DNA of 59,572 nt from Asterionella formosa (Eukaryota). The translations under genes and the position numbers were made by a program. Shown piece by piece: positions 15,688-51,329 of this stretch (position 1 is its first letter; each line of letters opens with the position of its first letter). The stretch lies in assembly GCA_002256025.1 (NCBI GenBank), contig NKIB01013326.1, positions 1 to 59,572 on the forward strand, in the 5' to 3' direction. Below the pieces are notes generated by a model, which did no database searches, had not been told where the DNA came from, and saw only the letters and a list, made by a program, of their open reading frames with translations.

Positions 15688-16322
15688 TTTGACTGTCGCT
15701 CAGCACAAAATTGCTTTGTACATTTTTAGTGATGAAATTCAAAATGAGCTCTGCAATTGAAAAATGGGGGCAAACATGTGCCATTCTTACTAACTACCGG
15801 TAAGTAAGTACCAGGTACCAGTAGGTATGAAAAATCCATAACATGCATACCAGGAATATTGAGTAAAATAAAATAATTACTGTACATACCGGTAGTCGCA
15901 TACTAAAGAACCTACTTACCCGTATACATAGGGTAGCAATACCGGTATTATGTGTATAATTATAATCGACTAGCAAAAATAAAGAGTTGGGATTTTACTA
16001 AGGAAAGTAAAGTTGATCAAGTTATTTTGGCGTGGTACATGTCAGAGTGTGTCTGTTAGGCTGTTGATGTCGACAGGTGTCCGAAGACTAGGTAGTCTGA
16101 GGAATGTCTAAACGGAAATAGACAGGATTTATATACCGGTAGCAGAAGAATCTGCAGACGAGCGGCGTGCGAAAGATCTTGACCGGTCATTCCAGGGCAG
16201 TACTGGAGCGCGCTAGAGTAGCGCCATATATTTCAACAGGTACATAGGAGTATTATTTTATACCGTAATTTCATGATGGTTTCAGAGAATTCGGACCATC
16301 ATTTAGAACAACAATTGTCCTC

Positions 16323-18818
16323 ATGGCGTTGTTGGTACCAGACTTTGAAGAATCAAGTTACTTGCCTTCCTTCGTTAATATTCGCAAAAAGACTCTCGAT
16401 TTGCTTTACCAAGGTGGCGGACTTGACAAATCACCAAAGGGATCCGTGGACGAACTGATACAGCCTCTCGTTGATCTCCTGAATCAGCATCCATCCTTCT
16501 CAACCTTGAGTAGTTGTTCAGGACGAATCGCTCTCTTTGATCCAGGTCAGACGTTGCAACATGAACCAGCAGCAGCAGCAAACGAAGAACATGATGTACA
16601 AGCACAGCATGCCATGGACGACGAACGTTCCAAATCCAGTGGCAAAGGCCGAGGTACATGGTTGCTGTCAAGCCATGACATTTTAAATGACAACGTGCTC
16701 ATTCAACTTCTTGACTCCTCCTCCTCGTCATCTACCATGGTGTTCAAGCACGAACCCTTGTTATTGCACGTGGCAGCGTGCAATGTGGAACGAGGTCGAC
16801 AATTACTCACATTGGCTCTTGGATTGGGATTTCGGGAGTCAGGGTTGGTGGTCACGGAAACGAGAGTAACTGTGGCCATTAGAGGATTGTCCCTGGGAAT
16901 GACAGTGCCTTTGGCTAGAGAGGGACCATTGAGACCGTCAGATCAATATTTGATTGCCGTTATGCAACAGGCAAATGAACGAATGAGGATAAATCAAGAC
17001 AAACTCAAACAATTGCACCAACAGGTGGCGGAGTCACTATTTCAAAGGGGAGACAACACATACCAATCGCAACAAGAGGAGGCAAACAAAATTCAGGTAT
17101 CGATAGAAAAGCTACCACCTCTCAACCTTTGGGGACTTGCTGCCGTCACCATACCTACTACTGACGATGTGTATGTCTTTGGTGGATATGGATGTGGACC
17201 ATTCACCTTTGGCCAACGATGCAAGAGATCAAATCAAGTTTTGAGGCTCTCGAAAGAGAATGGATTCTTCAAGAAGGAATGGACTGAAATGGAACAAATT
17301 CGATTGAATGAAGTGGATGCTAAGGAAAACTTAGAAACGACATCGTATGGTATTGATGTCATCTTGACAAATTTTGTTGCATGTGAAGGCTTGCAAGCAA
17401 TTATCCTCCCCCTCAACGAAGAAAAGAAATCTGTAGTTGCCATATGGGGAGGTCGGGCAGGACCTACCAGACCCTTTGGAGATTTATTACTCTATGAACC
17501 AGAATCCAGAACAGATTGCTTTGCTGCACCAGTGGATATCAAAGGCGATTTGCCTGAACCTAGATGGGGTCACACTTTCACTGCGCTTTCGGGTCAACAT
17601 GGACATTTGGCTGTCATTGTAGGGGGAAGAACCGAACACGAATGTCTGGCTTCAGTGTTCCTCCTTTCGTTGGTGGGCATCACAGGTGGAAAAAGAAACT
17701 TAAAATGGACAAAATTGGAGGTATCGATTCCTCCCCTGTTCCACCACACTGTGATTTCAACTAAGAATGATTCATTGATTATTTTTGGTGGCCTATCAGA
17801 TCAGAATAATTTGTTGGAATCCTTTAGCGATTCTTTCCAGTTATCCGGATTATATGGTCGCGATGGAACGACTCCATCGCCCCAAGCAACATCTTCCTTC
17901 CATGCCTTCAAGATTCAATCGGATGGATCGTCTCAACTAATTGAGCTCAAGGCCAGCATTGATACTATTCCGAGTTATGCTGGCTCGGGTTTTGTCTTGG
18001 GAGTTGACGGCAAAACTATAATTGGTCTCTTAGGTGGAATGCCCTCTCACTCATCAAGAGCATTGATTGTCTACAACCCACTTTTGTGGTTTTCTGTTGA
18101 AACTATAGATGGAGGGTTTGTTTTGTCCCCGCTTGATTTGGAGTACGTAGATGGAATGAATGAAATTAACGTTGCTGCCTTGGTACACAACTGCTGCATC
18201 GGAATAACTGGGTCCAAGGAAGAGGCATGCTCACTAGGCGGCGGTGTTTCTTCTTTTGCCTTTGGGGAGCTGTATGCTGAGTAAGCTCAAGATTGCCTCG
18301 TTTTTTTCACTTGCTCCCGTGGTCTGGTCTAACTCAATTCTCCTTGTACGCACAGATGCTACAAATTTCGTCTGGAGTGTGTTAACATGGACCTGCCCTC
18401 GCCGTCGAAAGGATTCTTCAATTCGCAAAAGATTTCCTTGTTAGATCCTGGCTGTCCATCACCCTCACCCATTCATAGATATTTCAAAAGCGAGAATGAT
18501 GATGACAATGAAAGGGATGTTTTGTTTGTAGCATCATCAAATGCAAAAGCGTTGAAAACCGCTCTCGAAGAAACCGGGTTTTTGGACAAGAACTTTCGCA
18601 TGACAAAGGCGAGCGAAAATACCACGTTGCCACGTTCAGAGAGCGGATGCATTGCTGTCCCTGTAACAAAAGAATGTCTAATCAAGCTGGAAGAAGGCAA
18701 CGTGCAATGGGCCAATCTCGTAGTGGGTCAAGGCAAGCAAGTTGTTCCATTTAGCGCTTTATGTTTGGCTAAACAAGGCAAAGATAATTATAAATGTCCC
18801 TCCCCTTTAATAGTCTAA
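16323..18818 (+). CDS. TYW3: tRNA wybutosine biosynthesis protein, TYW3 methyltransferase plus Kelch repeats (2 exons, intron 18281-18355, about 806 aa)
   Basis: TYW3 motifs DKSPKGSVD, STLSSCSGRI, FKHEPLLLHV, GFRESG. Kelch motifs VYVFGGYG, WGGRAGP, PEPRWGHT, IFGGL. Intron GTAAGC...TCTAAC...CACAG joins the 18387-18818 ORF in frame. Confidence 0.92.
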
Positions 18819-20448: not shown

Positions 20449-22298
20449 GGCAATTCCCGCTCCAGCTATCGTCTTGCCATTCGGGTACTTGTATGTAATT
20501 TTTAGGCTTAAGTAATTTCTTAAGTAAATTGTATTTAAGGGCAATATGGGGCACATGGAATTTTTCGGGAATGAAATTGCCGATTTTAGCATGACAACCA
20601 GAATAACGGTAATGCATAGAGATGGTACAACAAGCGTAAAACACACGAGAATCATTGTAACATGCCAACATCAATGAAAATTGAACATACTGTTTGGAGC
20701 AACCAAAGTATGAAATGCGATGTAATAAGTAGCGTCAAATGAGAAATAGAAAAAATTGTTTTTGGTTAGAAATGAAGTAAAAAATAAGAGTTTCGATGGA
20801 GATGTATGCATTGTGACATGTGGTACTTACACACGCAATTGAATTTCCATCACCACACAATCAACGACCGAAATAAGAAGGGAAAAAGCTGAACCCAATC
20901 TTGACCTGCATCGTTATGTAGCGTAGATGATCTGCTTGCTGTAACCATGCAAATCGCTGTAGGAGCCTGACACAAGTTGCAGTCCTTCTGCTCACTGTCC
21001 TTGTTCTTCCCACCTAACAACCCTGATCATCATTCCATTCCAATCCATTCTGATTGAGTATAATCGCCAGGCTGCTCCAGCACTATTGACTCCCTCTAGC
21101 CGAATATACGTAGCTTCTGATACAAACTCGTAGTAGAAATGTAGCAAAGCGCGTTAGTACAAGAAAAGCATTGCTTGGCGGCAATATTGACATCATTGTC
21201 AATGACTATACAAATCAACAAATACAATCATCATCGGCACAATACCACATCTTCAATGAGTAGTCATTGATAAATGCATTGGTTGTTGTGTAGATATATA
21301 CAATCGAAACAAAACGACAGTGCGGAACGACAAAGAATGACGGAAGCGATCAAAACAAGCCACGGAAGCAATCAAATCGGAAGGTCGATAAATACGATCT
21401 ACAATCCACATTCAGTGTTTCACTGTTGTACTCACCGATCCGCTTCAACTATCATAACAAGCAGCAGACAATGGGATCAAAGAAAGACGAACGTTGCCTA
21501 TTGCAAGCCCGAATAGAGCAACGGCAGGCAGGATAGAGTGAGAATTATAATTGTTAGGACGAAATTGGGCATACGGTACGTAAAATCAATCGATATGTGA
21601 ACGATAAAATTTAACAGTCTGGTCTCATAAAAATAACACTGAGTCTACAGAGACAATACTATAACGTGCTCAAAGTAAGCGTTAAAGTTTAGCTTAATTA
21701 AATCATGCATGGTTGTTTTCAGTACCACTTATGTGTGTAGGCTAGATGACTACCTGTAATGGTAGAATATCCGTTAAGCATCATCACATGCATGACTGGA
21801 GCAAAAACTTGCCGCCAACATCAGATGTATCGAAATCATTGTTCGTCCGACGAAATATGGACAATGCGACTACATGAATCCCTCGAGAAGACAAGCAATC
21901 CAACAACCAACCACATTCGTTAGACAACGAATTGCTACTGGCGTCATCGCGGAACTGATTTCGCTTCAAACCGGTCATGATGGATGACAATCGGTACCAT
22001 GGTGAAAGGTGAATTGCCGGAGTCCACTTTTCAGGAGACAAACAAAATCGAGGTGAATTCTAGATATAAATTATTAAAATCTGTATAGTATATAAATGGT
22101 TTCCTTAAGGATACCCCTTGCCAATTTCGGCAATCCCAGGGCTGGAAAACTGAGAGGCAATTGGCATCTGTTGTCTTGCCAAAATGCTAACATATGAAAT
22201 ACACGACGGCGCCACTCATACAGTCAACCTACTCATGCCACCCAGCCTCGAACACATGTATACTCGCAGGTATGTAGCCACCTTGGGCGTGTATTGCT
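20449..22298. mobile_element. Non-autonomous about 1.85-kb TIR element, copy A (family GGCAATWCMC)
   Basis: Colinear direct repeat of 49331-51151 over its whole length. Termini GGCAATTCCCGC ... GCGTGTATTGC(T) are an imperfect 12-bp inverted repeat. No convincing ORF. Confidence 0.85.
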
Positions 22299-22300
22299 GA

Positions 22301-22345
22301 GGCAATTCACAAGAAACTAGCTCTCGTTGCGCCATTCGCCTAAAT
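22301..22345 (+). mobile_element. Terminus of another element of the same TIR family
   Basis: GGCAATTCACAAGAAACTAGCTCTCGTTGCGCCATTCGCC aligns with the left end of copies A/B and with the reverse complement of 33692-33728. Confidence 0.65.
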
Positions 22346-23810
22346 GTCTTTTTTAGCTTGCTATAGCCCATCATACAAATATAGTTTATAGATTTCCTAT
22401 CTTCAAATAAAATCTTGCCAAAGGTCCAATATTTCCCATCATTAAAATATATTTTGTACATTTCATATGCTGCTCTATTATATATAGTTGCTCTGTTTTA
22501 ATTCAATGTTATTACAATTCTTACATACTTATGGTTAAACAATGAAAACGGGAACTACTTGCCGTCATTTTTCTCGAAGAGCAGTGTCAAAGTCTGCTAA
22601 ACGCAAAGAGCAAGATGATATCCAGTGTGCTGCATTGGCAATGTGTGCACTAGAAAGTAAAATGAAGCTTGGGTATATTGTTGATTGTTGTGTGCTTCCG
22701 CCCATGCTGACTAAATTGTCGATTTCATCCTAACATATTCAATTCATTACATTCTTCAGTTTATTGGAATGGAATGAGGTTGTTGCAAATGCTGTAAGTA
22801 TTCCCAAAGTAGCCATTGATAGAAATGATGAAGAAGTAGAAGATAGGTGCGTTTGTTGTTGATTGATGCATAGTTGTTCTTCCATTTCGATTCCATCACT
22901 CCAAATTGCTTTGTTTTCTGTCTTTTTTTGATAGCTGTAAAGAACCTTGTAAAAGCAATATATCCACAATTGTGAATTCCTCCGATGTGGTTGCAATACA
23001 TCATAATGATTTTGATACCGGTGGCTCTAGCTCTGTTGATTGAAGAGATTCTGATTGCACCAGTAGTGAGCGATTCTGATTTGATATACTTCATATCAAC
23101 TGCTACCATCGATGTTCCTCATAGCTAGTAATGGAGCTTATGCTTGCCACCCTAAATCCCAGATTCCAGCATCATACGCAACTGCTGAAGACTATGCCAG
23201 TGCGATTCGATCCAGCAATGATGTTTTGGTTCTACCAAACAAACAAATGCTATTAGAAAACTTTCGCACAACACAAGCAAATACACCAAGGCATGTAGCA
23301 TCAACATAGAGGACAGATTCTTTGAAGCCCTTTCCGAAAATCCAACCTTGGGCTCGCTTGCTTCTATGAATCTCGATCCCAACAATGGAAACCAGCCAAT
23401 CCATCGATTCTATCTCCTATATCGTGGGTTAGTAAGTAACGCCACCAAAGATATCCGTCTGCAAATAAAAAATATAGTACTTATAAGATCAGGGCTATCA
23501 TATGATAACTGGCACAGAATTTTTCTGTGCATGATACATATTTAGTTATATGTATGATAAATGCATACTATGTAAGCAGTCTAAGCTTATTCACAATAAT
23601 CAAACCACCATATAATTATCAAAACATTATCCTATGATGTACATTCTCTTATCATATATCTATCCTTACATGATGGTAAATCTAATCGAAACAGCTGTTA
23701 AAAATAGGTTGAAATGGATTGTAATTTTACTGTTATATCACGAAATCATTTTTGTGTTTCTGCATTTTGTGCAGTTGCTTAAACAGCCAATGTTCCCCTT
23801 TTCTATTGTC

Positions 23811-23990
23811 TCGATGCTCTTGATGCATGTCTCCTGCCTCCCTTCAATGTTTGTGAGGATGCACGCCTCCCCCCTCCCTTCAATGCTCTTGATACATGCC
23901 TCCCGCTTCCCTTCAATGCTCTTGAGGATGAATTGGCTCCCCCCTGCCTCCTGCCTTCAAATCTCTTGGTGCATGCCTCCCACCTTCCTT
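23811..23990. repeat. About 33-36 bp tandem repeat, a possible coding repeat on the minus strand (SIEGxREACIK)
   Basis: Recurrent GCCTCCC...CCTTCAATGCTCTTGA units. Confidence 0.65.
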
Positions 23991-24269
23991 CTGCTGATTC
24001 TGAAACTCATCTGACTACTTGCTGCAAATCCCATTTCCTTTTGATCCGATTCTGTTTTATCCATTTTGATTTCCTAATCATAATGACAATGAGAAGGAAT
24101 TACTCGCTTGTTAGTAGCCATGTTGTTTATATCTCAATACTGCAGTCCCATTTTAGCATGCTCCACTTACCAGAAATCGATGAACTTTTCGCATAATTCA
24201 GTAAAATAATTCGTCATTCAATGATCATATAAGTACAAATCAATAAACCGTTCCACCAGTGTCATTTAT

Positions 24270-24960
24270 AACTTACAACAAAACTCTTTGATTAAAATTA
24301 TCCTGAAAGATTGAAAAACAAACATGTGTCAGTGATGTTCTAACAGTGGCTCATTGATCCAACAAGAGCATTTACAAGTTTTTGGTCGACATTGGTGGCA
24401 TCCCACTGAATGCAAAATGTGCTTTTGAATTGCTATGGAAGGAGGCAATCATTTATTCTTTTTGAACCCAGCAATTGATCACCTTGGCATGTACTCTTGA
24501 CATACTATAGCTAGATTCAGTTCACTTTTCCATTTTCAATCCTTCTAAGCCGCAAGGTTTAGCGTCATTGTGTGCGTTGAAGCGTCATTCTTTCAGTTTT
24601 CTTTGTTACAGTGCAGAGATAATCTTTCATTTCAGGATCATGTGTTACCGGTAAGCATAACAAGGAACCTCTAAACATGATTTCAAATGTATGTATAGGC
24701 TATGTATACATTTATAAAATTTTGAAAACGTATAAATATATGCACATAATGTGTATACTACAATCAATTAAGCTTATGCATAATTCAAATATATTTAATG
24801 CATGAGGATATCATTGTTTTCCACGACCTGATGTACTGTTTTTGATTTTTTCCGCATCAATTCTTGTACCTACAAGTAAGTAATTTAATTAAGCCCTTCA
24901 ATTAACGGGAGTCATGCGACATTTTTCATATGGTACAAATCATAAAATATTTACCAGTAG
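24270..24960. repeat. Dispersed repeat, copy 1 (homologous to about 28800-29680)
   Basis: Shared colinear blocks: TTATCCTGAAAGA, CCCAGCAATTGATCA, TTCTAAGCCGCAAG, CATGATTTCAAATGT, TTTTCCACGACCTG, CAATTCTTGTACCTACAAGT, TTAATTAAGCCC..AACGGGAGTCAT. Confidence 0.8.
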
Positions 24961-25005
24961 ATGAATCGCTCGAATCAATCTTTATGAATTACACATCATA
25001 CATCC

Positions 25006-25680
25006 TGGTTAGAAATGATTGCCAATAAATAAGATCACAGATAACAATTTTTAGCTTTTTTGATCTTACTTTTAACATAAATATATCTTACTACTAAAAA
25101 ATAACAGATCATACTTTGGTTAGATATGATTGCCAATAAATAAGATCACTGATAACAATTTTTTAGCTCGTTTGATCGTACTTTTAACCTAAGTACGAGG
25201 TGACAATAGATATCAATGTCACCTTGTTTGCACGAGAACAACGTGTTATTGCGTCCCCTCCGTCACCAATAGATACCAATGTCATCACCTTGTCTGTACA
25301 AGAACGTGTTGTAGCATGAGTACGAGGTGACAATAGATACCATCCCCTTCATCACCGACAGATACCAATGCCACATTGTAGTACAACTACGTGATATTGC
25401 GTACCCTCAATCACTTTTAGGTATACAACAGGAAGTCACTCCCAAACCCTATCCCTATCATAGGCATGATTCAAATTCAAATCAATCATACACTTAGTAT
25501 GTTTACATACAAATATCTGTGCAACATACCGGTACAGGTGTCACTATGATGGACATGATTTAAAATCAAATCAATCGTATACTGGTAAGTACCCTTACAT
25601 GCAAAAATATGTGTGCTACATATATAGAACCCTATGATGGGCATGATTTAAAATTCAAATCAATCGCGTACATACGTTTA
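25006..25680. repeat. Cluster of short tandem duplications upstream of the second YR gene
   Basis: About 110-bp unit x2 (TGGTTAGA.ATGATTGCCAATAAATAAGATCAC), AGTACGAGGTGACAATAGATA x2, and GGCATGATT..AATTCAAATCAATC-like x3. Confidence 0.75.
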
Positions 25681-26063
25681 TATACAAAAATACCTGTGCA
25701 AAATATTGGTACTAGTACAATAGATGATACAGTAGACAGTAGTACCTGTTACCACCAGTACTCACACACAAGTAGACTCGAACATGCATACCCATACATG
25801 GATATCTATCATCATGTCTTCTAAACTATAGATTGCTACAGCAGATATGTATGTATACCCATGTACGACTGTCCTACTCATGCAACACGAATGATTCAAA
25901 TTCAGATTGAGCGGTTGTTGATGGTTGCAGCCAGTGATGGTATACATTCAAAAATACATGTGCTGTATCAATTTATAAATACATACAATATTCTCAAATT
26001 TTTATGATCATATGATTGCCATTATAAGATGCATCACACGAATTAGATGTTTTCTATTTGCAG

Positions 26064-26930
26064 ACGTCATCAACACTTCTGTCCTGTGGCTTGCAACCAA
26101 ATTCTTCAAAAATAAATCACCTTTTGTCCCCGAAAGTGCCTCCAACAAGGCAATCGCAATGGCAATGTACCAACCAAACATCGCCCAAACTAAACTGAAA
26201 AATATTTTCCGCTGCTTCTCCCGTTAAGGCAGACCGTACTCCCTGTCCAAGGATTTTAATGAATGCCCTGACATTGCAACATTCTGAGCGGAAGTACCAA
26301 GGATGTACCATGATAGAGGATACTGGCACCCCTTCATGCATAGTGAAGCTCATACATCACTACTGGGATAACATTGTCTGTTCGCCCAAGATGGTACCTG
26401 TTAACTAGCAACCAACCGTTCTTTCGGCGATGTGCTCCTGAGAAGGAGCTCAAGGTATGTATTCCTACAATACATTTGTAATGCTGATACCAGGTCCGGT
26501 GATTTTTTATGCATACCGGTACATATACATATGCATACCTATGTTCTTACTCATGTGCGTCTCTTTCTACATTGCTTCTCATATACTTGGTACTAAGAAC
26601 CGACGCAAGCTAGGGCTAGCAAACAAGGCAGGACACAAGAAGGGAGACTACTTTGGTAAAGGCTATGCTACTAGGCTTTGCGTTGACTTAGCTACAGCTT
26701 CAGGCATGATGGATAATGCTGATTGTTGCACTGCCCATGGTAGGAGGAAGAGAATGATTTCTTCACTTGTCAACTCTAGTGTTGCATTACCTATGAAGAT
26801 TATTCTTGATAAATCCAGGCATGGATTAGCGGAAATAAATGCCAGGTACCAGCTGCCATCAAAGGAAATGCAGCATCAAGCTAGGATTGCAGTTTTTGAG
26901 AAATTTGATGATGCCAAGGAACAGCTTGGG
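26064..26930 (+). pseudogene. Second-family tyrosine recombinase (phage-integrase/DUF3504-like), spliced and decayed
   Basis: Last exon (from 26598) carries CTAHGRRK (HxxR), KSRH (H/W) and NARYQ (catalytic Y). Intron GTATGT 26455 ... TAAG 26597 joins PFFRRCAPEKELK to NRRKLG in frame. The upstream exon has TPSCIVKLIHHY with frameshifts. Confidence 0.78.
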
Positions 26931-27004
26931 ACCATGAACTTGAGCTTGGCCCCCACGAGTACAACCATCAAAAAAGCCCTAGCCTTTTATCGGTTTTGTT
27001 CTTC

Positions 27005-28500
27005 TTATGAATTCAAAATACGGGGAGCACCAACTTGTTTCTGGAAAGATTGAGAACTGGCACGCATGAAACCAAAATCCAAATGAAAACAGGAGCCAGG
27101 AAGTAGATCATCAACAGAAGTGGTTTGGCCCATGGTGTTATGGTGGGCATGTGCTTGACTGCAGATGGGACAATGATGCATGGAGTGGGTGTATAAGGTG
27201 ATGGAGATTAGAAGGAAGGCCAATGCTGCATTGTTGAAGATGGTGAAGTTGATGCATGCCAGGATGGCCAAAGCGTTGTGGCCACAACTCTGAGCTGAGA
27301 ATAGGAGATAAGCGGTGTGTGGTGGGCTGAAAGGAAATCTGGTTGAAATAAAAGGGATTATTTGATCTAGTCAAGGGTGCGATAACTTAGAAGCGAATGT
27401 ATGCCTGATCAAGGTCCTGGCAGCAAATATCAAAGCCAGAGTAATTGTTGGATGTTTGAGTGCAGATGTGTTGTGGTGACAGACAAGTCTCAGACAACTG
27501 AGGGCAGTAGTACATGATGACAGGGGTGGTAGAACCATCAGAAAATTGGAGTGAATAATAACTATAACCTGGAAAGAGCATACCCTTAACAGATGCATCA
27601 GCACATAGAAGGTCAAAGGGAACAGAAAGGGGAGTATAGTTCTGGAGTAGTGATAAAGTGGAGGTAGTACAAACATTTGCACCTAGGTCACATTGGTGAA
27701 GACCTGTGGATGATTCAGAACAGAGCCGAGCAACATGATCAATAGGGAGAAGAGTGTTGTGGTTGTCGGCATAAGGGAGAAATGGATGAACAAGGGAACA
27801 ACAGTCAAAACAATCAGTAGGAAGATGAGGAATGGTGAATGCACAGGTATAAAGGCGATTTAAAGAGGGACAAGAAGGTTTCAGAGGAAGAGGAAGCGGC
27901 AACGACAGAGTCCTATTAGGAGAAGAATTCTCTCTGACAGTCATTCCGCAAACCCGTAGCCGTTCATCATTCCTGGAAGGGGAGAATGACCGGCCTAGAG
28001 AAAATTTGCTTCATAAATATCATCTACATGGAGGTCAGGTAAGGAGTCTTCAGGATGGAGGTGTTGAAGGTTGATGACAGGCAATGGCATGACGATGGTT
28101 CATGCTATGAAGAGTTCTCCAAGCAGTGGCAGTATTCTCAGCATGGGAGGGATTAGCAAGAATGTATGTCTGAAGAAGGGCAGCTTTGACAAAAGAGGAA
28201 CAGCAAGAAGCAGAATGACCCCAAGTACCACAAGCAACACACTGGATGTCCTCATGTTGACGGAAAGAGTGGGAAGGGGTTGGGATTGATGAGGGCCGCT
28301 TTTGAGAGGCATTGGTTTGCCGAGTGGAAGTTTTAGGGATGGTGATACGATGAGCAAGAGGTGTGGAAGTCCCAGCATGAGTTTGGGAGGGAGTACTAGG
28401 AGGATGCTGTGCCAGGACTAATGCCAAATTTGGGATAAGGAGAGAAGGAGGAGGGACAGTGCAATCAGGGCGGGCCAGGTCCTCAACTGCTTTTAGCTGG
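27005..28500 (-). mobile_element. Decayed Ty1/Copia (CoDi-like) gag-protease-integrase fragment
   Basis: Domains in Copia order on the minus strand: CCHC knuckle CVACGTWGHSASCC, protease CDLGAN, YYCPQLSETCLSPQ, GAG-pre-integrase ELWPQRFGHPG, CPIC, integrase FHLDFGFMRAS. Several frameshifts. Confidence 0.88.
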
Positions 28501-28799
28501 ACTTGGATTGGGAAGGAATGAAGATCAAGTTCATGAAGAAAGTGGAGAGAGAGTTCCTGGCTGGTATACTGGCGGGATTTGGATAGCTCACCCTGCCTGC
28601 CGATATGCTAAAAGAGCAGAAGCAAAATTGACAGGATCAGCAGAATCTGAGTACAAGGGTAAAGGTGCAGCATTTCGCTTCTATCTTCACTTACCACAAA
28701 TTGAGGAAGTAACTGAAGCATATTTCTGTAAAGGAATGTGTCAGTTGAAGATTGAATGAGAAAGTATCGATCAATAAATGGGCTCCAACACTGCTGTTT

Positions 28800-29680
28800 G
28801 TAACTTACAAATACTGTTTGTCTATCATTATCCTGAAAGAAGCAACACATAAGTGTCAGTTTCCAACAGTTGTGGATTGATCCAAAGATGATAGCACCTT
28901 CCGATTTCTTTTGTCCACATTGATGGTTGGCCAGCCACCAAATCGAAAAGGAGCTATTGAATCACTGAAAGGGGACAAGTCATTCCGTTTTCATAATCCC
29001 AGCAATTGATCATCCTGGCATTTGCTCTTGATGTGGTACCATGCACAGCTTGTTGATTCCGCCCTTCTACATCATATTCACTCCTTCTTAGCCGCATGGC
29101 GTATCATCGTGTTGTATTGTCACTTTAGTTTTTTTCATCATGTGTTGCTTGAGATCCTTCATTTCAGGAAGTGGATGCATGAAAAGGAACATGAAAGGCA
29201 TTTGCTCTTGAATTACCATCAAATGATTCCGCTATTCTCTTCTAAGCCGCAAGTATCATTGTGCTGTATTATCAATTTCGTTTTCTGTGTCACCATGTGT
29301 GATGATCCTTCATTTCAGGAGCAAAGTGTATGCATGACAAGGGGAACGCACATGAAAACATGATTTCAAATGTTTCAGCCATGAATACATCTATACAAAG
29401 ATTTGTAAGAAGTTTAAATGTGTATATAGTTGAACATTTGCATAGTTTTAAACACGCACATTATACAGCACATCCTGTGCATACTAATATAAATTTTGAT
29501 TATACATAATTCAAAAATATACAATGCATGATGAGTTCATAGTTTTCCACGACCTGTTGAAATTTTTCAATTTGTTTTGTGTCAATTCTTGTACCTACAA
29601 GTCAGTGGCTGATTTAATTAAGCCCCTTAATAAACGGGAGTCATCACCAAATTTTCAAATGGTCGAAATCATACATTTAT
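28800..29680. repeat. Dispersed repeat, copy 2 (homologous to 24270-24960)
   Basis: Same ordered blocks as copy 1, with a small internal duplication around 29080-29320. Confidence 0.8.
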
Positions 29681-30117
29681 GTTTATAGACATATAGACCA
29701 AAATTCATATGGCCTACCGGTAGTACTGTATACTTGCTGGTAATTACTTCTATCATGGAAATACCACAATAGTGCAGCGGAAAACTGCATATGCTCATTT
29801 GTTTAGGATCATTTGATCATATTGATGAGTTCATAGTTTTCCACGACCTGTAGAAATTTTTCAATTTGTTTTGTGTCAATTCTTGTACCTCCAAGTCAGT
29901 AGCTGATTTAATTAAGCCCCCTAATAAACGGGAGTCATCACCAATTTTTCATACATTTATGTATATAGACACATTGACCATATACAGTCGAAAAATTCAT
30001 ATGGCCTACCGGTAGTACCACTGTATACTTGCTGGGTATTACTTCTATCATGGGAATACCAACAATAGTGCAGCGGAAAACTAAATATGCTCATGTGTTA
30101 AGGATCATTTGATCATA
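29529..30117. repeat. About 294-bp tandem duplication
   Basis: TGATGAGTTCATAGTTTTCCACGACCTG...GGATCATTTGATCATAT at 29529-29822 and again at 29823-30117. Confidence 0.92.
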
Positions 30118-31727
30118 TGTTAAAGATCAATTAATCCTGATTCTTGAAAATAAATTTTGATCTTTCATTTTCTCATCAACAACACCGTTTATCATATGAT
30201 CAATATGTTATGATCAATGGTATAGGATGAACGAATCAATATTTATTGATTAAAGATCATAGTTTATACCGGATTAGTTGCTCATGCATGCAACCCCTTC
30301 CCCCCTGTATACAGTACGGAAGTGATAACCCCCAAGCTACCAAATTTTTATGTCTTGTAAGAATTATTGCAGCATGCATGCATACATGACTCCTACTGGT
30401 ATATACAATGCGGAAATGATGACCACCAGACTACCAATCCTATAGGTCCTGTAGAATTATCGCAACATGGCTGCATATCTAATGAAAGGGCGGGAGGAGT
30501 TATCCATGCTGCACTTGTATTGTATGAAATATGGAAATGATCAAATATAGTCTACACAAGGAGCAGTGCATCATATGTGCCCTGTTATTTTAATTCCTAT
30601 GAAATCTCTTGATCTGTTCTGCGCTTTTTCGACACAATTGTTTTCATTGGCTGGCTGTTTCTCTGGTCTGCATTTGAATTGATTGTGCTTCGAACGAAGC
30701 AATGATCAAAGTCCAGTCCCTTGCAGAATGGTGAGTCTCACAACTAAGTATCAGCCAGGCGATTAAAATGGTACTGTCTTTTGTGCACCCTTGCTTGTTG
30801 TGTTTGTACATTGACTTGGCAACTGTCAGCCAAGAGCAGCCATGGTATGCCACCATTTATTGTCTATACAATTTTCGAATGCGTTCAGCTATGATAACTT
30901 TTGCTCCCCCCTCCTAAACACTATCTCACCACGCACCCTTGTCATAGATATTTCTTTGTCCTTTGGCATCACAGGCACAGGTTACTCAATGCCTTCATCT
31001 ACAAGTTCAGCAAAGCATGTTGGCATCAAGAAAACCTCAACCCCGATTTTCCTCACATGCTCCACCCATTGACTTCTTCATTGATGAAGTTGAGGTAGCT
31101 ATATTGACGAAATTAGGTGGCGCAGGCTTGTTGTGTATAGATTGATGATGCTGAAAGCAATGCTTCCTTTTCCCGTTGGTACCTATTTCTTGTCAACATT
31201 GTTTGGGTCAATCCATTCTTGTTCCCGCAAGACCAGAAGCAATTATCCCTGTACTTCTCCTCCCAAGAACCTTCATTTCTCTTTCACAATTGTCCTGATG
31301 ATGTTTGCAGAGCATTTTTAGTTCCCTTTTGATTTTTCCACTGGTTTTGATCCCTTTTGCATTCAAGTCAAGAAACAAGCAACTCATTGAGATTTCTGGA
31401 GGTCTCGGTCAGTGGCACCATAAAGCAACAATCAACAGATCATGGCGGCTGTTCTACATTTTCTGTAGCAAGTGACACCCAAGAAGGGTCTGGGATCATT
31501 GGGAGAAAAATTAGTAGGTTTCTCTGTGTTTGAACCCTCCCATTTGGCAGCCATTCTACCATTACTTCCTCTCAATCAATAACAATATAGCTAATGAAAA
31601 CCGTAATTAGATAAAATGTGACTTCCGGTTTCTAATATTTTACATTGTTGCACTACTGAAACTTGAATCCATAAATGGGCATTCAACTTGTGCTTCTTGC
31701 ATTTTTGCAGTATAGATTGGCTGGTGC

Positions 31728-31820
31728 TCGATAGGCCAAAGTGTCTGGCTTTTTATGAACATCTACAAAGTAGTGCTTTTGTCGAGGTTTGTTTCTAAAT
31801 CCAACTGCTGCCATCCACTG
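31728..31820 (-). pseudogene. IS630/Tc1-superfamily (Sagan-like) transposase fragment
   Basis: Reads QWMAAVGFRNKPRQKHYFVDVHKKPDTLAYR, matching the WMxxLGFxYxxRKKxYYVDGHEKPxTxxYR motif. Lies about 1.9 kb inside the TIR at 33728 on the same strand. Confidence 0.6.
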
Positions 31821-33691
31821 AACCATTCCAGATACATCAAAGAATACGCTCCTGTCGTCAAAGGTAAGGAACTGGTACGATGAAAAAGGAAATCTGATGA
31901 GACATGAAAATTACGACACCAGAATCACTCTGTTACTATATATGGACAGTCTCATGCTTCTTTGTGCATATCGCTGCTATGCTGCATTTCAATTCTAGAT
32001 GTATTGCGTTCTTGTTAGAGAGACGATGTTACAGAGAAGTAGATTGAGCTGTTCTATGATGGATGGTGTTTAGCTATGATTGAGGTTGTAACACTGATCG
32101 ATGCTCCAGTGATAGACTGGCCGGAAATATTCTTCTTGTGTGATGAGCCATTTCGTTTTTATTGGATTTCTTTTCAAGCTCTTAACGGATTGCATACAAA
32201 CATACTGCGCACTGTAGATGATGATTCATCGAAGACATATGATGAATGGAATGACAAATGAAGATTTTATCACAAACTCTCGTTCCTCTCGACATGGCTG
32301 CTTTGTTGTTGTTGCTGCTGCAACAATCGGAGTGAAGACTGGCAAGGATGATGAGCCAAACCACATAACTTTAACTGGTACATTATCCTACCAAGTAATT
32401 TAAATAAAGGAGCCTAAAAGAAACAATACATATAATAATTGGGAAACAAGAAAAATAAATGAATAATGTCAGTGCGTGTATATTATACCTTGTAAGGAAC
32501 AATTACAATCAACTGGCAATATACTTCACCTCATTGGACAAAGGTTCGACTAGTGGATGGTGATTTGTTGGCATTGTCAGGAAGTGGAGGAGAAACATGA
32601 CAGGTACCTTCATCAACGCTCTGAAGAGAAAGAAATATATATTATAATTAGCATGCTTGACCATGGCGGGAACTCAAACATGACAACAACAATCAACAAG
32701 CACATTCCTGTCCTCTCTTCCTTGTTGAATACAAGTTCATGCAGAACACCGGTTCCATCATGTTCCGGCTGCTTTGCTGAGTTCGCGATAGCTCATTGAG
32801 AGTAACGACTCATTGTTGTCATTGTAGATAATTATATAGAAGTAACAAAAGTAATATTGTGATTAGAAAGCAATGAAACAATACTATTGTAGAGCAGTGG
32901 AAAAAGCCAACACATAGCACTAAAACTTGCTGCCGAGATCAGATTTGAGATAGTGTAGGACACGAAGAAAACATACTACAAATTATATTTCAAATATAAC
33001 GGCTGATCATATCTGACGAAAAAATACCGGTTCAATGACGAGATGGACTCCTAACTTTGACCTACTACCATAACGTTTTGAGTTTTGATACTCAACGACT
33101 GATTGAGGTCGCTTTCGAACAATCATTAATTTTTTTATCACTACATATCAAATCTAGCAAAGGAGTTGACTGGAAAGGCTATCAGAAATCAACAGAAGCA
33201 AAGGGGAACCGAAATTTTGGCGCCACTGTGACGAAGCAAGCAGGATGCGACGATGAATCCCATAAGAAGTCGAATTATCCAACAACCAGCCAGATCCAAT
33301 TGATGAAGAATCGATGTTTGGGACTTCAATGAACAGAGTTAGTATACCTTGGAGCATGCTAGAAGATAGCAGAGATGTAAATAGCGGAATTGCTGTTGAC
33401 ACTTTACAAAAATCATCATTTTGTGCCCTTCACATAGCTCATCCTAATACCTTCAAATTTTGGATTCCATTTCGGCAGGCAAATCTTGGGGCTAACGGAA
33501 CAAATGAAATATACAAAATTTGTTTTATATGAAGGGCAATTGCAGGATTGAGTACCCGATAATCAAAAAACTGTACATAAGAAAAATACAATATATCTTT
33601 TATATGAAGGGTATTTTTTTTAGATAGTTCGCATCCAACATAAAAACTATTTAACATAGATTTTCAATGTTAACTGAAAGGGCAAAGTAGT

Positions 33692-33728
33692 GGCGAAAAG
33701 CGCGCCGATAGCTAGGTTGTGAATTGCC
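33692..33728 (-). mobile_element. Terminus of a GGCAATWCMC-family element pointing leftward
   Basis: Reverse complement reads GGCAATTCACAACCTAGCTATCGGCGCGCTTTTCGCC and is flanked by TA (33729-33730). Confidence 0.65.
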
Positions 33729-33730
33729 TA

Positions 33731-33915
33731 GTTAAGACCCTACTCGGGAGGAGTCTGCCTACTCGTAATCATATGTATTGGATTTGGGAGGCCCTCGCAG
33801 GTTGACCTTTTTCCAGCTGTGGGGGCGCCACTTGTTTGGTCAACCTACTTCCGCCTCCCAAGCCTCAAACACAAGAATACTTGCAGGCAGTCTCCACCCT
33901 CGGTCGTGTCTTACC
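33731..33915. mobile_element. About 185-bp fold-back MITE related to the right end of the 1.85-kb element
   Basis: Ends GTTAAGACCC / GTGTCTTACC. Nested stems GGGAGGAGTCTGCCTAC/GCAGGCAGTCTCCACCC, TTGGGAGGC/GCCTCCCAA and AGGTTGACC/GGTCAACCT. The right arm aligns with 51060-51151. Confidence 0.8.
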
Positions 33916-34699
33916 TCCAGTAGTACCAGGTACTTGGTACCGGAGTACCTGGCAATCCTACAAGGTACCAGGAGTGTACCTGGTACCCGGTACCAGTAAA
34001 AAACTGTTTTGACCCATTGAGAATATTTTTGAACTGTTGTGACCCATTGAACGCAGGATAACACGTTTTGTAATCAAAACTTAAATAAATGAAAATTTTG
34101 AGAGTTCTGGCTCCTTCCCGAGCATATAGGCTAGTCAGCTATGTAATTAGTTTGAGATTTGGAGCAAGTTTTTCATCTCGATAGATTGCCTGAAATGGTT
34201 GATCGACCGAAAAACCATGAAGAACATGGAGTAGGGTAAGTTTAGAAGTCACCGCATCATATGATATACAATGATCAATATAAAAGTTTCGACATTGATT
34301 TGAACCTTCGCTTCATTTTCGACAATATAGTATATCTTGTCTTGGTATTGACTTCTACGGAGATGGCAAATTATTTAGGTGCATGGCATCATCATGCAAA
34401 GCCAATGCATTTTGTATGATTACCGGTATACCAGGTAGGGAGTACATACCAGGTTTTCATCGCACCTTTCTAATAACATGCATGACAAGTGCTTTACCAC
34501 ATGACCTAATCCGTCCTCGAAAATGTTTATAAATTTATATACATTTATCTAGAAAAAAGTATATACTGCCGTGACCCATTGAAATCACTTTTTGGCTGTT
34601 TTATTATCATTGTATCTTCTGATGAAATCATTCAATCAGAATTCTAGCACAACAGCTTGATTGATTGATGCTGCTCTGACACTATCAAACAAATGGATC

Positions 34700-39253: not shown

Positions 39254-39370
39254 CGACTAGAAAACTGCTGACAGTGACTAGAAATTGCTGACGATGACTA
39301 GAATTTTCTGACAACGACTAGAATTTGCTGACATGACTAGAAATTGCTGACTACGACTAGACATTACTGA
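39254..39370. repeat. Minisatellite, 6 x about 20 bp (YGACTAGAAATTGCTGACNN)
   Basis: Direct reading of tandem units. Confidence 0.9.
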
Positions 39371-41744
39371 TTGGTAAAGAGTATATGCAAAACGTCTTCC
39401 AATTACTGAATATCATTACCAGTAGTAGTAGGTGAACACCATTTCGATGATTGGATCACCCCTTGGATTTAATGCATGATAATTTAACAATATAGAAAGA
39501 TACCTAAAAGAGTTTGAAATGGAAAGCCAGCTTATCTCTTCCGGTAGACATGAGACGAATCATTGGGATTGAGTCGAAACTGAATAAATGCGTATAAAAA
39601 GTGCGCGACCGGCCTTTCCGGTAGACAAATATACAGTAAAAAGGTACATGAACTTTTACCAGATTTTTTTGAGTGAGAGTTGACTGTCAGGTTGTTATCC
39701 TGTCCCGTGTTTCAAGCTAGAGAAAAATCGCTCCGAGAAAAAGGGCCCCTTTAAAAATCAGGTGAATTTCACCCAAAATATGTATCCCAGACCCGCCATA
39801 GTACTACGTTACGACTGGAAAATTCCGTTAATACTAGGGAGCCAAATTTCTAATTATAACATCGATTCTACATCGATTAAATTTCAGTGGCCCTAAAGCT
39901 CCTATTAGGTCAACAATTTATAACCACTATGAATAATAGAAAATAGTCCTGTAACTTGATACTCCGTTCTATACATGAGTCGAACACTGAGGGAACATCT
40001 TGCATACAAAGGAACGGATTCACTTGATATAATTTTCTCAAGTTTGTGTTGTAATCATCATTTAAAATCACATGCACAAATCAAAGAGCCATCCACGCGT
40101 CTTGTAAATAATTGCTTAATAAATAATTTTTTAAAAACTTTTCCACTACATCGTCCAAAGTAGATTGATTTTTCAAAACTAATGTACGAAAATGTCATAA
40201 CTAGTTTTATTGTCAACGAAAACAGCGCGCAATAATCTTTCTTCAACAATAACTTGTATACGTTGATTTAGTAATCGTTATCATTAATCCGAGTAATCTA
40301 AGAAATTATTTCTCATTGATAAACTAATGCCTTGGTGATAAACATAAGGAAAAAGTAATTGCTGCCCTAGCTGCATATACACCAGAGGCAAAGCGAGTAT
40401 TGTAAGCATCCACATTTTGTGCTTGTGTAATTCAATCTCATGTGAATAAGCCTTTATCATCGTAGCTTACTTGTATACTATTGTCAATAGACAGTTAGGA
40501 TTTGCTTGATTCTTGACTGTATTTTTAACATCTTTAATGCCAATCAACCCAAAAGTATTTAAAAAGGGTCCACCTGTAAACTCACTTCTGTTTTTGAGTC
40601 AGGTTGTGGATAGCAAACCAGCAAGGCATTTTCGAATTTCATAGCAATATACCCTGATGGTGCGTTTTTGCCGCTGACATGCTACATCTAAGCAGCTAGA
40701 TTTGTGACTAGTGTTTTAATCGATTTCAATGAACAGAATTCAACAGTTATTTTCCATGAACCAATTGGATCAACCATGACTTCCAATCATGGAAATTAAA
40801 AAACATTATAAGGTGGAAGTTGGCATGAAACGATTGCCCCTTGCTTGTCGATTTGTTTTGTGATTCTGTACAATTAAGGAGGAGGGTGATTGCAATAATC
40901 TTGCTTGGTGGTTTGACTTCCGATACAACTGAATTTTCAAACAAAGAAGAACTTACCCTGAAAACTAAATGTCTTTCAATCAAATTTCAGAAATGAAAAA
41001 AGAAAATTCCAGCCGTAAATGTAGTGGAAGCTAGACTGCACTGGTGGTAAGTAACCAGCACCATACACAAAGCTTGTCATGATGAATGTTTGCATACTAT
41101 GAGTTAGTACCGTTAATTACAAATGCGATAATAGTCAGAAAAGTTAATCATTCTTGTGTCATTGACTCTTTGTGATAGCAAGTTCAACGGGTCGATTCAT
41201 ATGATGGGTCACTTTCTAACCTGCAAGACTTGTACAATAGTTGCTGCCGATTTGCGAATCTATAGTATGGAGGTATTGTGCTGGTAACTCCCTCCAAATC
41301 ACTAAAAAGGATAATTGCAGTATTAAGTGGTAACAAAATAAATGATAGAGTTCAAGTTTCTTTGGATCTGAAGCTATTGATCTTTCTTCACCATTGCCAC
41401 CCTCCACCACCTCCTCCGGTGCCAACAACATGATATCATACCATCTTTGCTGCCTATCATTCTCCTCCTCCAAGCAATTCCCCATAGTACTATCACCACC
41501 CACCCTCTTACAACCCAACACAAAGCCACCATCATCAGACTGTATACATGTCAATCCACCCTCCTTCTCCTCCCCCTCCTCCTGCCGGATACTACCGGCA
41601 CCACGAATGAGCACCAGCACCAAATGCCTACTACTATTATCCATGTTTAATTATTTCCTACTTGACAATGTCACTAACATGCATTACTACTATGCTTTGA
41701 TTCTATACTATTTACACATTTAAGACGTATACTAGTTATTCTTT

Positions 41745-42030
41745 ATCAAGCTGGACACAAGATTGGTGACTGTTTTGGTAAAAATTATGCAACTAGAATT
41801 TGCGTAGATCTTGCAACTGCTTCTGGGACGGAGAAGCCAGCCAGATCGTTGCACAGCTCATGGCCAGAGAAAGAGCATGATTTCTGCTCTGGTAAACTCA
41901 ACTGAATCCCTTCCAACCCAAATTGTTTTTGATAAATCTAGGCACTCTTCTGCCGAAATTAACTCCAGATATCAGAACCCTTCAATGGAGATGCAACACC
42001 AGGCTTTCGTTGCAGTTTTTGAAAAGATCG
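41745..42030 (+). pseudogene. C-terminal fragment of the second-family tyrosine recombinase (paralog of 26598-26910)
   Basis: AGHKIGDCFGKNYATRICVDLATASG, then a frameshift, then DRCTAHGQRKSMISALVNS...DKSRHSSAEINSRYQNPSMEMQHQA. Aligns nearly residue for residue with the 26.6-kb copy. Confidence 0.82.
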
Positions 42031-42483
42031 CAAGTGCTTTCCCACCTGAAACACCTCAATCAGTTTCATCCTCCTCTGTACTACCTACAGTCATACCCTC
42101 TACGTCGACTCCTGTTGGTTGCTGTGTTGTAACTCCTGCCAATCCACAAGCTCAACCAGCCTCCCAATACTTATTGGCATCCAACCGGTACACTCTTGAA
42201 TAGCTTGCAGTAAAAGCTAAGAGAACTTAATGACACCATTCCCTGAGATTCAGAGAATTGGGCATTGTTCACGCTTTCAATGCTTCCAGTGTCAAATTGT
42301 TAGACTTATGAAAGACCTATCATGATCCAGAGGTCTACTATCTTATAACATGCAGGAATTATAAGAATTTCATTGCGATAAGTTAGACTAATAATTTTCA
42401 AAATATACAGCACACTAATTTAATTGCCCATTGGAGGGGTTGGGTTCGCACAAAAAGACGCTCAGATTTCAACCCAGATCTCA

Positions 42484-43469
42484 TCAACGAGAATGCACGT
42501 AAAGCATAGTGAGAAAGCATATTCCAATTAATCGAAAGACGACGAGCCAAAACTGATTATTATCTGAACGGTTCTCTTGAACACAGTCGATCAAGTCGAA
42601 TAACTGATCGCCCCTGTTGTCAATCAGCTTAAAGCTCAGGGGAACAAAATAGTCGGCGATTCCAGAAGGAGTGTTGACCTGAATACCCCCCAACAAAGCA
42701 ATCTTGCTCTTTGCTTCAACATCACCACATCCACTAGAAATAAGACGATGCATTAGATCCCTCTGAGCCTCATACAAAACAATTGAAAGTTCAACAGCTG
42801 GATCAGTGGCACTGGGAACTCTTGGCTCACATTGGAGTAAGATATTGCCCACGAAGGATTGTTGGATATCCAATGGATCTATATCATGAGTGCAAATCTT
42901 GGCGACTCCCTTTCTAACGCTAGAAACGTAAGACGCAGCCACAGCTGCACTTTCGCAGCAGATGCCGCTGTGTTTACACCCCCTACGGTTGACCTTTCCA
43001 ACAACTCCATCTGCATCAACCCCTATATGGGGTCCAAAGATGACGATGCAGTTGCCATTGGTGGGAATGTGATTAACCATTTCACAAAATGCAGAGACTC
43101 CCCCAAATGGAAAACCGGCGAGGCCTCCCATAGAGAACTGATCTCCATAGCTCGTTTTCAATCCTTTTTCGAGCTCTTTATTGATGTTGTCGCTACAGAG
43201 TGACGTAGCAACAAGGGTATTTCGTTTTCTGAATCCATATTTTCTGAGTGTTCTAGACATGTTTTCGATCAATATTTCGTTTGGTAAGGCTCTTGGGAAT
43301 ACTGAAGCGATCTTGATAGTACATGGCTTTATTGTTCAAAAGTATGAGAATGACACACAAAATGTGTTAGGAGATTTTTGCACGTCCTTCTCGACTGATG
43401 TCAGCGATCACGGGATTGGCACGAACTTACTGTCCCCTGTGAATTCGAAGGCTCATAGGATGGATTCAT
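42484..43469 (-). CDS. LCIB/LCIC-family (theta-type) carbonic anhydrase-like protein (2 exons, intron 43327-43430, about 293 aa)
   Basis: NTLVATSLCSD, FSMGGLAGFPFGG, HIP...FGPHIGVDADG.VGKVNRRG, CCESA, LLGGIQVNTP...DYFVP. The GTAAGT...CCTAAC...AAG intron links ATG 43469 in frame. Confidence 0.9.
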
Positions 43470-49330: not shown

Positions 49331-51151
49331 GGCGATTCCCGCTCCAGCTATCGTCTTGCCATTCGGGTTCTTCTAAGTAATTTTTAGTCTCTAAGTAATT
49401 TAGTAATTTCTTAAGTAATTTTTATTTAAGGGCAATATGGGGCACATCGAATTTTTTGGCAATAAAATTGCCGATTTTAGCATGACAACCAGAAAAACGG
49501 TAATATGCATAGAGATGGTACAACAAGCGTAAAACACACGAGAATGATTGTAACATGCAACATCAACGAAAATTGAACATGATGTTTGGAGCAACCAAAG
49601 TATGAAATGCGATGTAATAAGTAGCATCAAATGAAAAATGGAAAAATTGTTTTGGGTTAGAAATGAAATAAAAAATAAGAGTTCCAATGGAGACGTATGC
49701 ATTGTGAATCATTGTAGTACTTACACACCAGGCAACATTGACTTTCCATCACCATATACAATCGAAGACCGAAAGAAGAAGAAAAAAAGCTCAACCCAGT
49801 GTAGACCTGCATCGTTATTTAGCGTAAATGGTCTGGTTTCTGCAACCATGCGCATCGCTGTAGTAGCCTGACACCAGCAGCAGTATTTCCGCCACATTCA
49901 TTCCTCTCCGCTGCCCACCAAACAAGCAACCCTGATCATTCCATTCTGAGTAAGCGTGATCGCCACGATGCTCCAGAACTTTTGACTCTCTCTAGCTGAG
50001 TATTCATGTAGCTTCTGATACGAACTCGTAGTAGAAATGTAGCAAAGCGCGTTAGTACAAGAAAAGCATTGCTTGGCGGCAATATTGACATCATTGTCAA
50101 TGACTATACAAATCAACAACGGCACAATACCACATCTTCAATGAGTAGTCATTGATAAATGCATTGGTTCTTATGTAAATATGCACAATCGAAACAAAAC
50201 AACAGTGTGTAACTACAAACAACGATGGAAGCGATCAAAACAAACCACGGAAGCAATAAAATCGGAAAGTCGATAAATACGATCTACAATCCACATTCAG
50301 TATTTCACTGTTGTACTCACCGATCCGCTTCAACTAGCATAACAAGCAGCAGACGATGGGATCAAAGAAAGACGAACGTTGCCTATTGCAAGCCCGAATA
50401 GAGCAAAGGCAGGCAAGATAGAGTGAGAACTATATTTGTGAGGACGAAATCGGGCATACGGTACGTAAAGTCAATGAATATGTGAACGAAATAATTCAAC
50501 ATTTCAGGTCTCGTAAAAATAATACCAAGTCTACAGAGATAATATTATAACGTGTTCAAAGAAAGCGTTAAAGCATAGCTTAAACCATGCATGGTTGTTT
50601 TTAGTACCACGAACGTATGTAGACCAGATGACTGCCGGTACCGGTAGAATATCCGTTAAGCATCATTACATACATGACCGGAGCAAAAACTTGCCACCAA
50701 CATCAGATGTGTCGATATCATCGTTCGTCCGACGAAATATGGACGATGCGACTACATGAATACCTCGAGAAGACAAGCAATCCAACAATCAACCGCATCC
50801 GTTAGGCAAAGAGTCGCTACTGGCGTCATCGCGGAACTGATTTCGCTTCAAACCGGTCATGATGGACGACGATTGGCATGGTGAAAGGTGAATTGGCGGA
50901 GTCCACTTTTCAGGAGACGAACAAAAACGAGGTGAATTCTAGATATAAATTATTAAAAACTGTATAGTATATAAAATGGTTTCCTTAAGTAGACCCCTTG
51001 CCGATTTCGGCAATCCCAGGGCTGGAAAACCGAGGGGCAATTGGCGTCTGTTGTCTTTTGGACGCCACTCGTACGGTCAACCTACTCGCGCCACCCAGCC
51101 TCGAACACATGTATACTTGCAGGCAAGAGACCACCTCGGGCGTGTATTGCC
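49331..51151. mobile_element. Non-autonomous about 1.82-kb TIR element, copy B (GGCAATWCMC family), nested in the Kolobok-like element
   Basis: Direct repeat of 20449-22298. Termini GGCGATTCCCGC / GCGTGTATTGCC. Absent from the sister host copy at about 57550-57580. Confidence 0.85.
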
Positions 51152-51329
51152 TTCAGTACTACCCGCAGTGGATATGGTACCGGCATACCGGCGATCACCC
51201 AATAAAATTTTAAATGTGTATCCAGTGTGGCTGGTGTGGGTTTGCAAAGCCTCGCAAACCGGGCCAATCAAGTATCGGTAAGTAATTGAACTTGACCAAT
51301 CAAAATATTTATAGTGAAGCGGACACTTT

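Follow-up and report, generated by a model that had tools for sequence, protein, structure and literature searches.

Organization of the locus

The DNA analysed here (the window) is a stretch of 59,572 nucleotides of the diatom Asterionella formosa (contig NKIB01013326.1, positions 1 to 59,572 of the forward strand, assembly GCA_002256025.1). It contains the remains of a putative tyrosine recombinase (YR) gene that is split by another transposable element. In an initial annotation, made from the letters alone, the region 23800-30120 had been read as a repeated module consisting of a spliced YR gene, a divergently oriented, decayed partner gene and, lying between these two, iterated sites. According to our analysis, the window probably contains one copy, now dead, of a multicopy element of about 4.2 kb which has a single predicted gene, a YR of the Crypton type, and which was interrupted by an element with terminal inverted repeats (TIRs); the family to which this copy belongs likely inserts by exchanging one strand. 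Coordinates are collected in Table 1.

Table 1. Features related to the YR family and to the elements nested in or next to it (window positions)
Feature	Position	Strand	Remarks
Non-autonomous YR-family derivative	20449..22297	-	Right end lies at 20449; head-to-head fusion joins the left arm with the internal site in the YR copy
Junction-like internal site in the YR copy	22285..22330	+	Inverted left arm, 6-bp CTGAGG, inverted right-arm copy; hybrid form
YR gene, 5' part	22542..23455	+	Decayed; coding from about 22935; the start and both upstream introns are conjectural
TIR element, subfamily A	23456..26066	.	Non-coding, 2611 bp; 12-bp perfect TIR CGTCTGCAAATA
Remainder of the long YR exon	26069..26454	+	Frameshifted; 311-bp deletion at 26261/26262
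GT-AG intron, predicted	26455..26597	+	143 nt
YR catalytic exon	26598..26928	+	H-x-x-R, H and Y; element truncated 3' of the exon
Copia-like long terminal repeat retrotransposon, internal fragment	27003..28669	-	Zinc knuckle, GAG-pre-integrase region; unrelated to the YR
TIR element, subfamily B (same TIR family), truncated	28671..32440	.	Contains the second block
Sister YR subfamily, left end	33700..33920	-	Spacer, hairpin of about 185 nt, internal junction copy with 6-bp spacer
Diverged sister YR fragment	41397..42186	+	Intron and catalytic exon, frameshifted; tail piece displaced upstream
Second non-autonomous derivative	49331..51156	-	Both ends present

The catalytic exon carries the three motifs that had been recognised before, TAHGRRK (26730-26750), SRH (26814-26822) and NARYQ (26838-26852), and the roles of the residues in the R-H-R-Y tetrad were assigned by motif. 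The gene reaches beyond the left border of the region considered in the initial annotation, to about 22542. This copy is dead because of the TIR insertion, frameshifts, the 3' truncation and the 311-bp deletion, which removes the RGSIE motif and with it the first catalytic Arg, likewise assigned by motif. The predicted intron occupies the same codon in 13 loci of the own genome (G000), all drawn from L001-L030, as well as in two loci from metagenomes; it is 128-152 nt long, and a database relative (P0019/P0028) reads across the exon joint without an intron.

An unrelated TIR element is nested in the recombinase gene

The block that had been taken for the partner gene lies, together with the tandem-repeat spacer, inside the subfamily A element, which shows the features of a TIR transposon, namely TIRs and a target duplication (TC at 23454-23455 and at 26067-26068). 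When G000 was searched at the DNA level with 24150-25000 (546 first-look candidates, 40 scored), the alignments began at 23456 and stopped near 26066. Of 13 copies with both ends, 12 were flanked by a matching 2-bp duplication of variable sequence. At 11 other recombinase loci of G000 the site is empty, with 23455 joined straight to 26069, and the same was found at the metagenome locus L164. No recombinase lay within 1.5 kb of the 29 other block loci or of the 19 sister loci, so that the block was accompanied by a recombinase at 0 of 48 other loci; such a lack of co-occurrence is the outcome that the initial annotation had named as refuting its module. Among recombinase loci, 2 of 28 had TIR-element DNA nearby, as had 3 of the 19 YR stretches that were extended, at other places. 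The column majority of 11 copies contained no open reading frame (ORF) of more than 142 amino acids, and none of the four window ORFs in the block had a Pfam match. A partner gene in the block is therefore rejected on account of the empty sites and the lack of an ORF, of co-occurrence and of a Pfam match. The block and the YR gene are not one module; an unrelated TIR element landed in the YR gene, the supposed iterated sites are the interior of that element, and what looked like a partner gene is an artefact produced by the nesting of transposons.

The repeats themselves had been seen correctly. Tandem duplications are present at 23811-23991, 24987-25195, 25452-25712 and 29529-30118, and the block of about 0.7 kb (24161-24944), reported to recur at 28.8-29.7 kb, does so at 28685-29673 with 68-76% identity, within the subfamily B copy (454 first-look candidates in G000), to which the 294-bp duplication at 29529-30118 is local. 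The TIR family (CGTCTGCAAATA; in the window at 23456-26066, 28671-32440 and 52743) comprises at least two subfamilies of 2.6-3.9 kb with hundreds of copies each. No intact transposase frame was seen among the copies examined, and searches for the superfamily gave no result. The reciprocal nesting also occurs: at L058:2479-3176 a left end of the YR family lies within a copy of the TIR element.

The predicted recombinase belongs to a multicopy family with a single gene

The YR exon matched G000 at least 54 times on at least 39 contigs. A family unit of about 4.2 kb was defined from extended copies (L068), and almost the whole of it is present in the near-complete metagenome copy L164. A search of the full-length element for partner genes had been proposed, and neither L068 nor L164 has a second gene; no Pfam match to reverse transcriptase (RT), gag, DNA polymerase B (polB) or capsid was obtained with the L164 ORFs, and nothing of this kind was found in viral contigs. 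Family ends are far commoner than genes, with 314 left and 441 right ends in G000 (up to 2 mismatches) and none with reversed-pattern control searches. The existence of a poorly described multicopy YR mobile element with broken copies, as suggested initially, is supported, and the close paralog noted at 41.7-42.0 kb was recovered at 41750-42025 with 70% DNA identity to the YR exon. The Pro-rich tail piece of this fragment (41397-41624) lies upstream of its catalytic exon and downstream of it in L013, L022 and L026, so the fragment is permuted. Unbroken long-exon frames were observed in environmental assemblies (the P0029 cluster with 47 members, and L161-L165), and therefore intact copies probably persist in wild populations.

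Judged from their substitutions, the recombinase copies are under purifying selection: the ratio of nonsynonymous to synonymous substitution rates was 0.055-0.13 in four comparisons, synonymous sites being saturated in four others. Among the copies, the first catalytic R was conserved in 12 of 18, and the remaining motif residues in 27/32 (H), 29/32 (R), 28/32 (H) and 28/31 (Y). The DUF3504 model of Pfam matched one exon only, with expectation values (E) of 0.0011 and 0.0033 (19.5 and 17.9 bits versus a cut-off of 29.7), and a relative that is 45% identical to the window exon (P0005) matched a PHROG integrase at E 9e-6. The nearest clusters in the ESM Atlas were DUF3504 and phage integrase (0.96). 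The evidence for a tyrosine recombinase is therefore consistent, each line being individually weak. The exon had been described as quite unlike the recombinase at 1.5-3.5 kb, and this was borne out by a profile comparison with the recombinase at 1.9-3.1 kb, in which no similarity was detected (hhalign probability 0.05). The usual signature of DUF3504 Cryptons is HSLR/GH, from which HGRRK/SRH had been considered to differ. Since HGRR fits H-x-x-R and the upstream exon weakly matches DUF3504, the signature is better described as a putative variant than as a departure.

Several results on the gene and its product weigh against the explanation given here. Seven of eight proteins had no match to a PHROG integrase, the NCBIfam recombinase and PDB sequence searches gave no match, and no family match to the YR protein reached a curated threshold. 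No copy seen in G000 was fully intact. Parts of the gene are present in six RNA runs, three of which were inspected for splicing. In the RNA contigs of these three runs no spliced joint was seen, with DNA carry-over uncontrolled; two contigs run unspliced across both of the guessed upstream introns, and none of the RNA pieces among the matches listed bridges 26455-26597. Of the canonical intron proposed earlier, the GT..AG signals were confirmed, and the spliced joint was not found in RNA contigs. Database searches found no full-length intronless relative, and no relative of the protein was found in the viral contigs or prokaryote genomes searched. Fold models were of low confidence (predicted local distance difference test 44.7 for the P0014 alignment and 33.8 for P0040 alone), Foldseek and VIA-align returned nothing usable, and the fold is therefore uninformed by them. 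The PF12012 search of G000 gave no match, and neither did its control.

Element ends and target pattern suggest exchange of one strand

Joined to each other, the right and left ends read GGGAATTG-CTGAAGG-CAATAC, an arrangement that was seen once as such (G000:C2702). The arms around CTGAAGG are imperfect inverted copies, 21 of 30 positions over 30 bp, and do not form a true TIR. Left ends were searched with the left arm without its spacer, and spacers were counted by hand and not de-duplicated. Among the matches listed (100 of 118), CTGAAGG was exact in 87 and had at most one change in 95, and a T stood two bases before it in 93. On the other side, CTGAAGG followed the right end in only 1 of 100 matches listed; among these (100 of 175) the right arm was followed by TTGC in 93, and in 91 of those by a pyrimidine and then variable sequence. 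Host flanks were freed of family DNA, which left 42, and 33 of these have an A at the seventh base past the crossover C (p 2e-11, against a background of 28%). The T before the spacer is thus mirrored by an A after the crossover, which gives T-G-C-Y-N4-(C)-A as the target; its arms flank 6 bp, whereas those of the element junction flank 7 bp. The repeats at the ends, T-G-C-T on the left and T-G-C-Y on the right, are 4 bp long and degenerate, and there is no target duplication. In a sister subfamily, T replaces C as the first base of the arm, and the base that hosts provide before the spacer is mostly A (16 of 28 cases), versus G in 37 of 46.

Tyrosine recombinases, as outlined in PMC3212892, cut on both sides of a 6-8-bp spacer between inverted arms. 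For the present family, we propose that the right and left ends would join into a circle with the junction given above. The recombinase would then pair this junction with the host target T-G-C-Y-N4-(C)-A, whose arms mimic those of the element but are 6 bp apart rather than 7. A single strand would be cut at TG/C and exchanged, and replication would finish the insertion, thereby leaving the element spacer on the left and the host spacer on the right. Host spacers are almost never found on left ends, although they would be expected there if both strands were exchanged, and this argues for a single-strand exchange. Insertion patterns thus tip the balance of probability towards one exchange at TG/C followed by replication, a course of events reported as demonstrated in the accounts for integrons (PMC3458562) and SE elements (PMC9345347). 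A point on the other side is that the only junction found, G000:C2702, may represent a tandem insertion rather than a circle.

An inverted copy of the junction lies inside the left end

Of 46 left ends, 35 contain the junction once more in inverted form, located 70-175 bases inside and composed of the inverted left arm, YTGAGG and the inverted right arm; its spacer has the same sense as that of the left end. The hybrid form seen in the window copy is rare, with two occurrences in G000. Left ends of the long form fold as one hairpin (fold z -5.1 and -5.3). When 18 ends belonging to two subfamilies were aligned, 95% of the cells could pair, 9 of 63 pairs are changed on both sides, and the cell-level pairing measures exceed all 500 shuffles as well as slid controls.

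One way to read the internal copy is that, in a folded single (top) strand, it would pair with both ends and align them, with the spacer left unpaired; the recombinase would exchange this folded strand, and replication would complete excision and insertion. By analogy, the family might then be a eukaryotic DNA transposon that resembles integron cassettes and uses its internal copy as a splint. We put this forward tentatively, as a possibility with the odds against it; if true, it would explain how Cryptons gain copies. Only 1 of 5 left ends with a short loop folded better than its shuffled versions, and the number of pairs in the hairpin does not beat shuffles (325/500). The paired changes follow two or three lineages, so they represent few events, and arm conversion could be their source. 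These results weigh against the proposed explanation.

The foremost alternative is an ordinary Crypton that follows the standard short-repeat model. In this case both strands would be exchanged across the shared TGCY, CTGAAGG would be no more than the beginning of the left end, and the hairpin with its internal copy would be the relic of an old inverted self-insertion. It agrees with the model of 4-6-bp direct repeats as presented in PMC3212892 and with the CACCG/CAYCG of CryptonF-1_cRei as given in PMC9977147. Moreover, 11 of 46 left ends, among them that at 51156, lack the internal copy, and self-insertion into the internal site, of which family members provide five cases (L070, L103, L108, L133, L137), could make such copies. 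However, in host flanks there is a second, mirrored arm base 6 bp past the crossover, the arms are symmetric about CTGAAGG (21/30) and not about TGCY, and the target base before the spacer shifts with the first base of the arm (G 37/46 versus A 16/28). In addition, a plain relic predicts a spacer of complementary sense, whereas the internal copy keeps the sense of the left end. We consider this model rather unlikely.

Much less probable still are DIRS-like ends, with the YR-only units as deletion derivatives copied by an RT supplied in trans and the internal copy acting as an internal complementary region (ICR). The internal copy is indeed complementary to both ends, as is the ICR of DIRS-1, and DIRS-1 prefers self-insertion, both as described in PMC7192593; the terminal regions are also well covered in RNA libraries. 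Against this, introns are retained in all copies examined, the near-complete L164 has no RT or gag frame, there are no long inverted terminal repeats, and the copy lies at the left end with a mismatched spacer, long-range partners having been checked in 20 extended stretches. The two-gene element of the initial annotation has next to no probability left. In its favour, the block adjoins the YR exon in the window and reappears at a distance of 4.7 kb, and TIR-element DNA lies near 3 of 19 extended YR stretches. These three neighbours are at different places, however; the block is bounded by TIRs and a target duplication of its own, interrupts the YR frame and lacks an ORF, and its site is empty in 11 other copies, which refutes the two-gene reading.

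Further arrangements at the internal site were observed. In the five cases above and in L138, L063 and L132, family members are inserted into other members, in both orientations, either within the internal site or at the right end. Head-to-head fusions at the internal site, with the internal and not the terminal spacer, were found twice, at 22285-22308 in the window and at G000:C15011:37794-37816 (L167). A fold-back origin of the latter was rejected, since its arms are 93% alike, less than the 98% they share with other copies, and hence come from different copies. An inversion between junction and internal site, like that of Flp and the 2-micron plasmid, is unsupported, with the hybrid inner arm occurring only twice.

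Relation to known elements

The family has the general features of Cryptons, with R-H-R-Y motifs, a short direct repeat and no RT, gag, polB or capsid, and its sequence appears closest to the DUF3504 group. CryptonA and CryptonI, including Glomhopper, are alike in their single YR gene, introns and abundant non-autonomous derivatives, as far as described in PMC3212892 and PMC13465315, and the present family is weakly similar to them in DUF3504, with no GCR1_C domain found. These accounts report them from animals and fungi, none of the animal members having been found to carry terminal repeats, whereas the present family is algal, stays below the Pfam cut-off and has a Pro/His-rich tail and structured ends. 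Of CryptonF the GCR1_C domain, and of CryptonS the TATGG termini, are lacking. CryptonF-1_cRei of Chlamydomonas, in the account of PMC9977147, is alike in its gain of copies and in a short terminal motif with a degenerate target (CACCG/CAYCG versus TGCTG/TGCY), but GCR1_C is typical of CryptonF and the last exon of the present family has no Pfam match. According to the same source, Cryptons of Chlamydomonas excise cleanly and yet gain copies. CryptonS of stramenopiles, as characterised in PMC3212892, has a conserved C-terminal region and 5-6-bp repeats, mostly TATGG, versus termini of TGCTG/TGCY here. No internal junction copy or hairpin is described for CryptonF-1_cRei or CryptonS in the text of these sources available to us.

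Integrons and SE elements, as portrayed in the sources cited above, resemble the family in the predicted exchange of one strand, replicative completion and one-sided inheritance of the spacer, and integrons also in the folded substrate proposed here. They are bacterial, however, SEs have four genes, and the mechanism put forward for our family derives from insertion patterns alone. The ICR of DIRS-1, in the description of PMC7192593, is similar in being an internal sequence complementary to both termini, and self-insertion is shared; the present family differs in having no RT-RNase H or gag, in keeping its introns, in the location of the copy at the left end and in its non-complementary spacer.

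In titles and the beginnings of abstracts, we found no DUF3504-like Crypton in diatoms, no internal junction copy and no one-strand exchange by a Crypton; Repbase or supplementary lists may hold the family. It would extend DUF3504-like Cryptons to an alga, as which the host is recognised by its LCIB gene and by samples of freshwater or algal origin. Crypton movement has, in the literature as far as available to us, been modelled but not dissected, and in this family the enzyme, the junction, the pattern of targets and the internal site are all defined, with hundreds of natural insertions for study. The asymmetry of these insertions points to one-strand exchange, a question which can be tested directly.

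Other features of the window

Of 4 frames from relatives of the Copia-like fragment, 3 matched GAG-pre-integrase with scores slightly below the cut-off. A second recombinase-like element at 1650-3573 (- strand) is CryptonF-like, with a weak match to GCR1_C (E 0.019), and is unrelated to the YR by profile. Related long hairpins at 52369-52501 and 57018-57172, with arms of 47 and 67 nt, lie within another repeat family, and a 20-bp tandem array at 39255-39370 is also present in L069. Fragments of a Copia-like pol (3-1001), a DDE_Tnp_1_7 transposase (45414-45998) and a DDE_Tnp_4 transposase (59095-59571) were identified as well. The host genes are a TYW3 fused to Kelch repeats (16269-18284, + strand) and an LCIB-type carbonic anhydrase (42484-43335, - strand).

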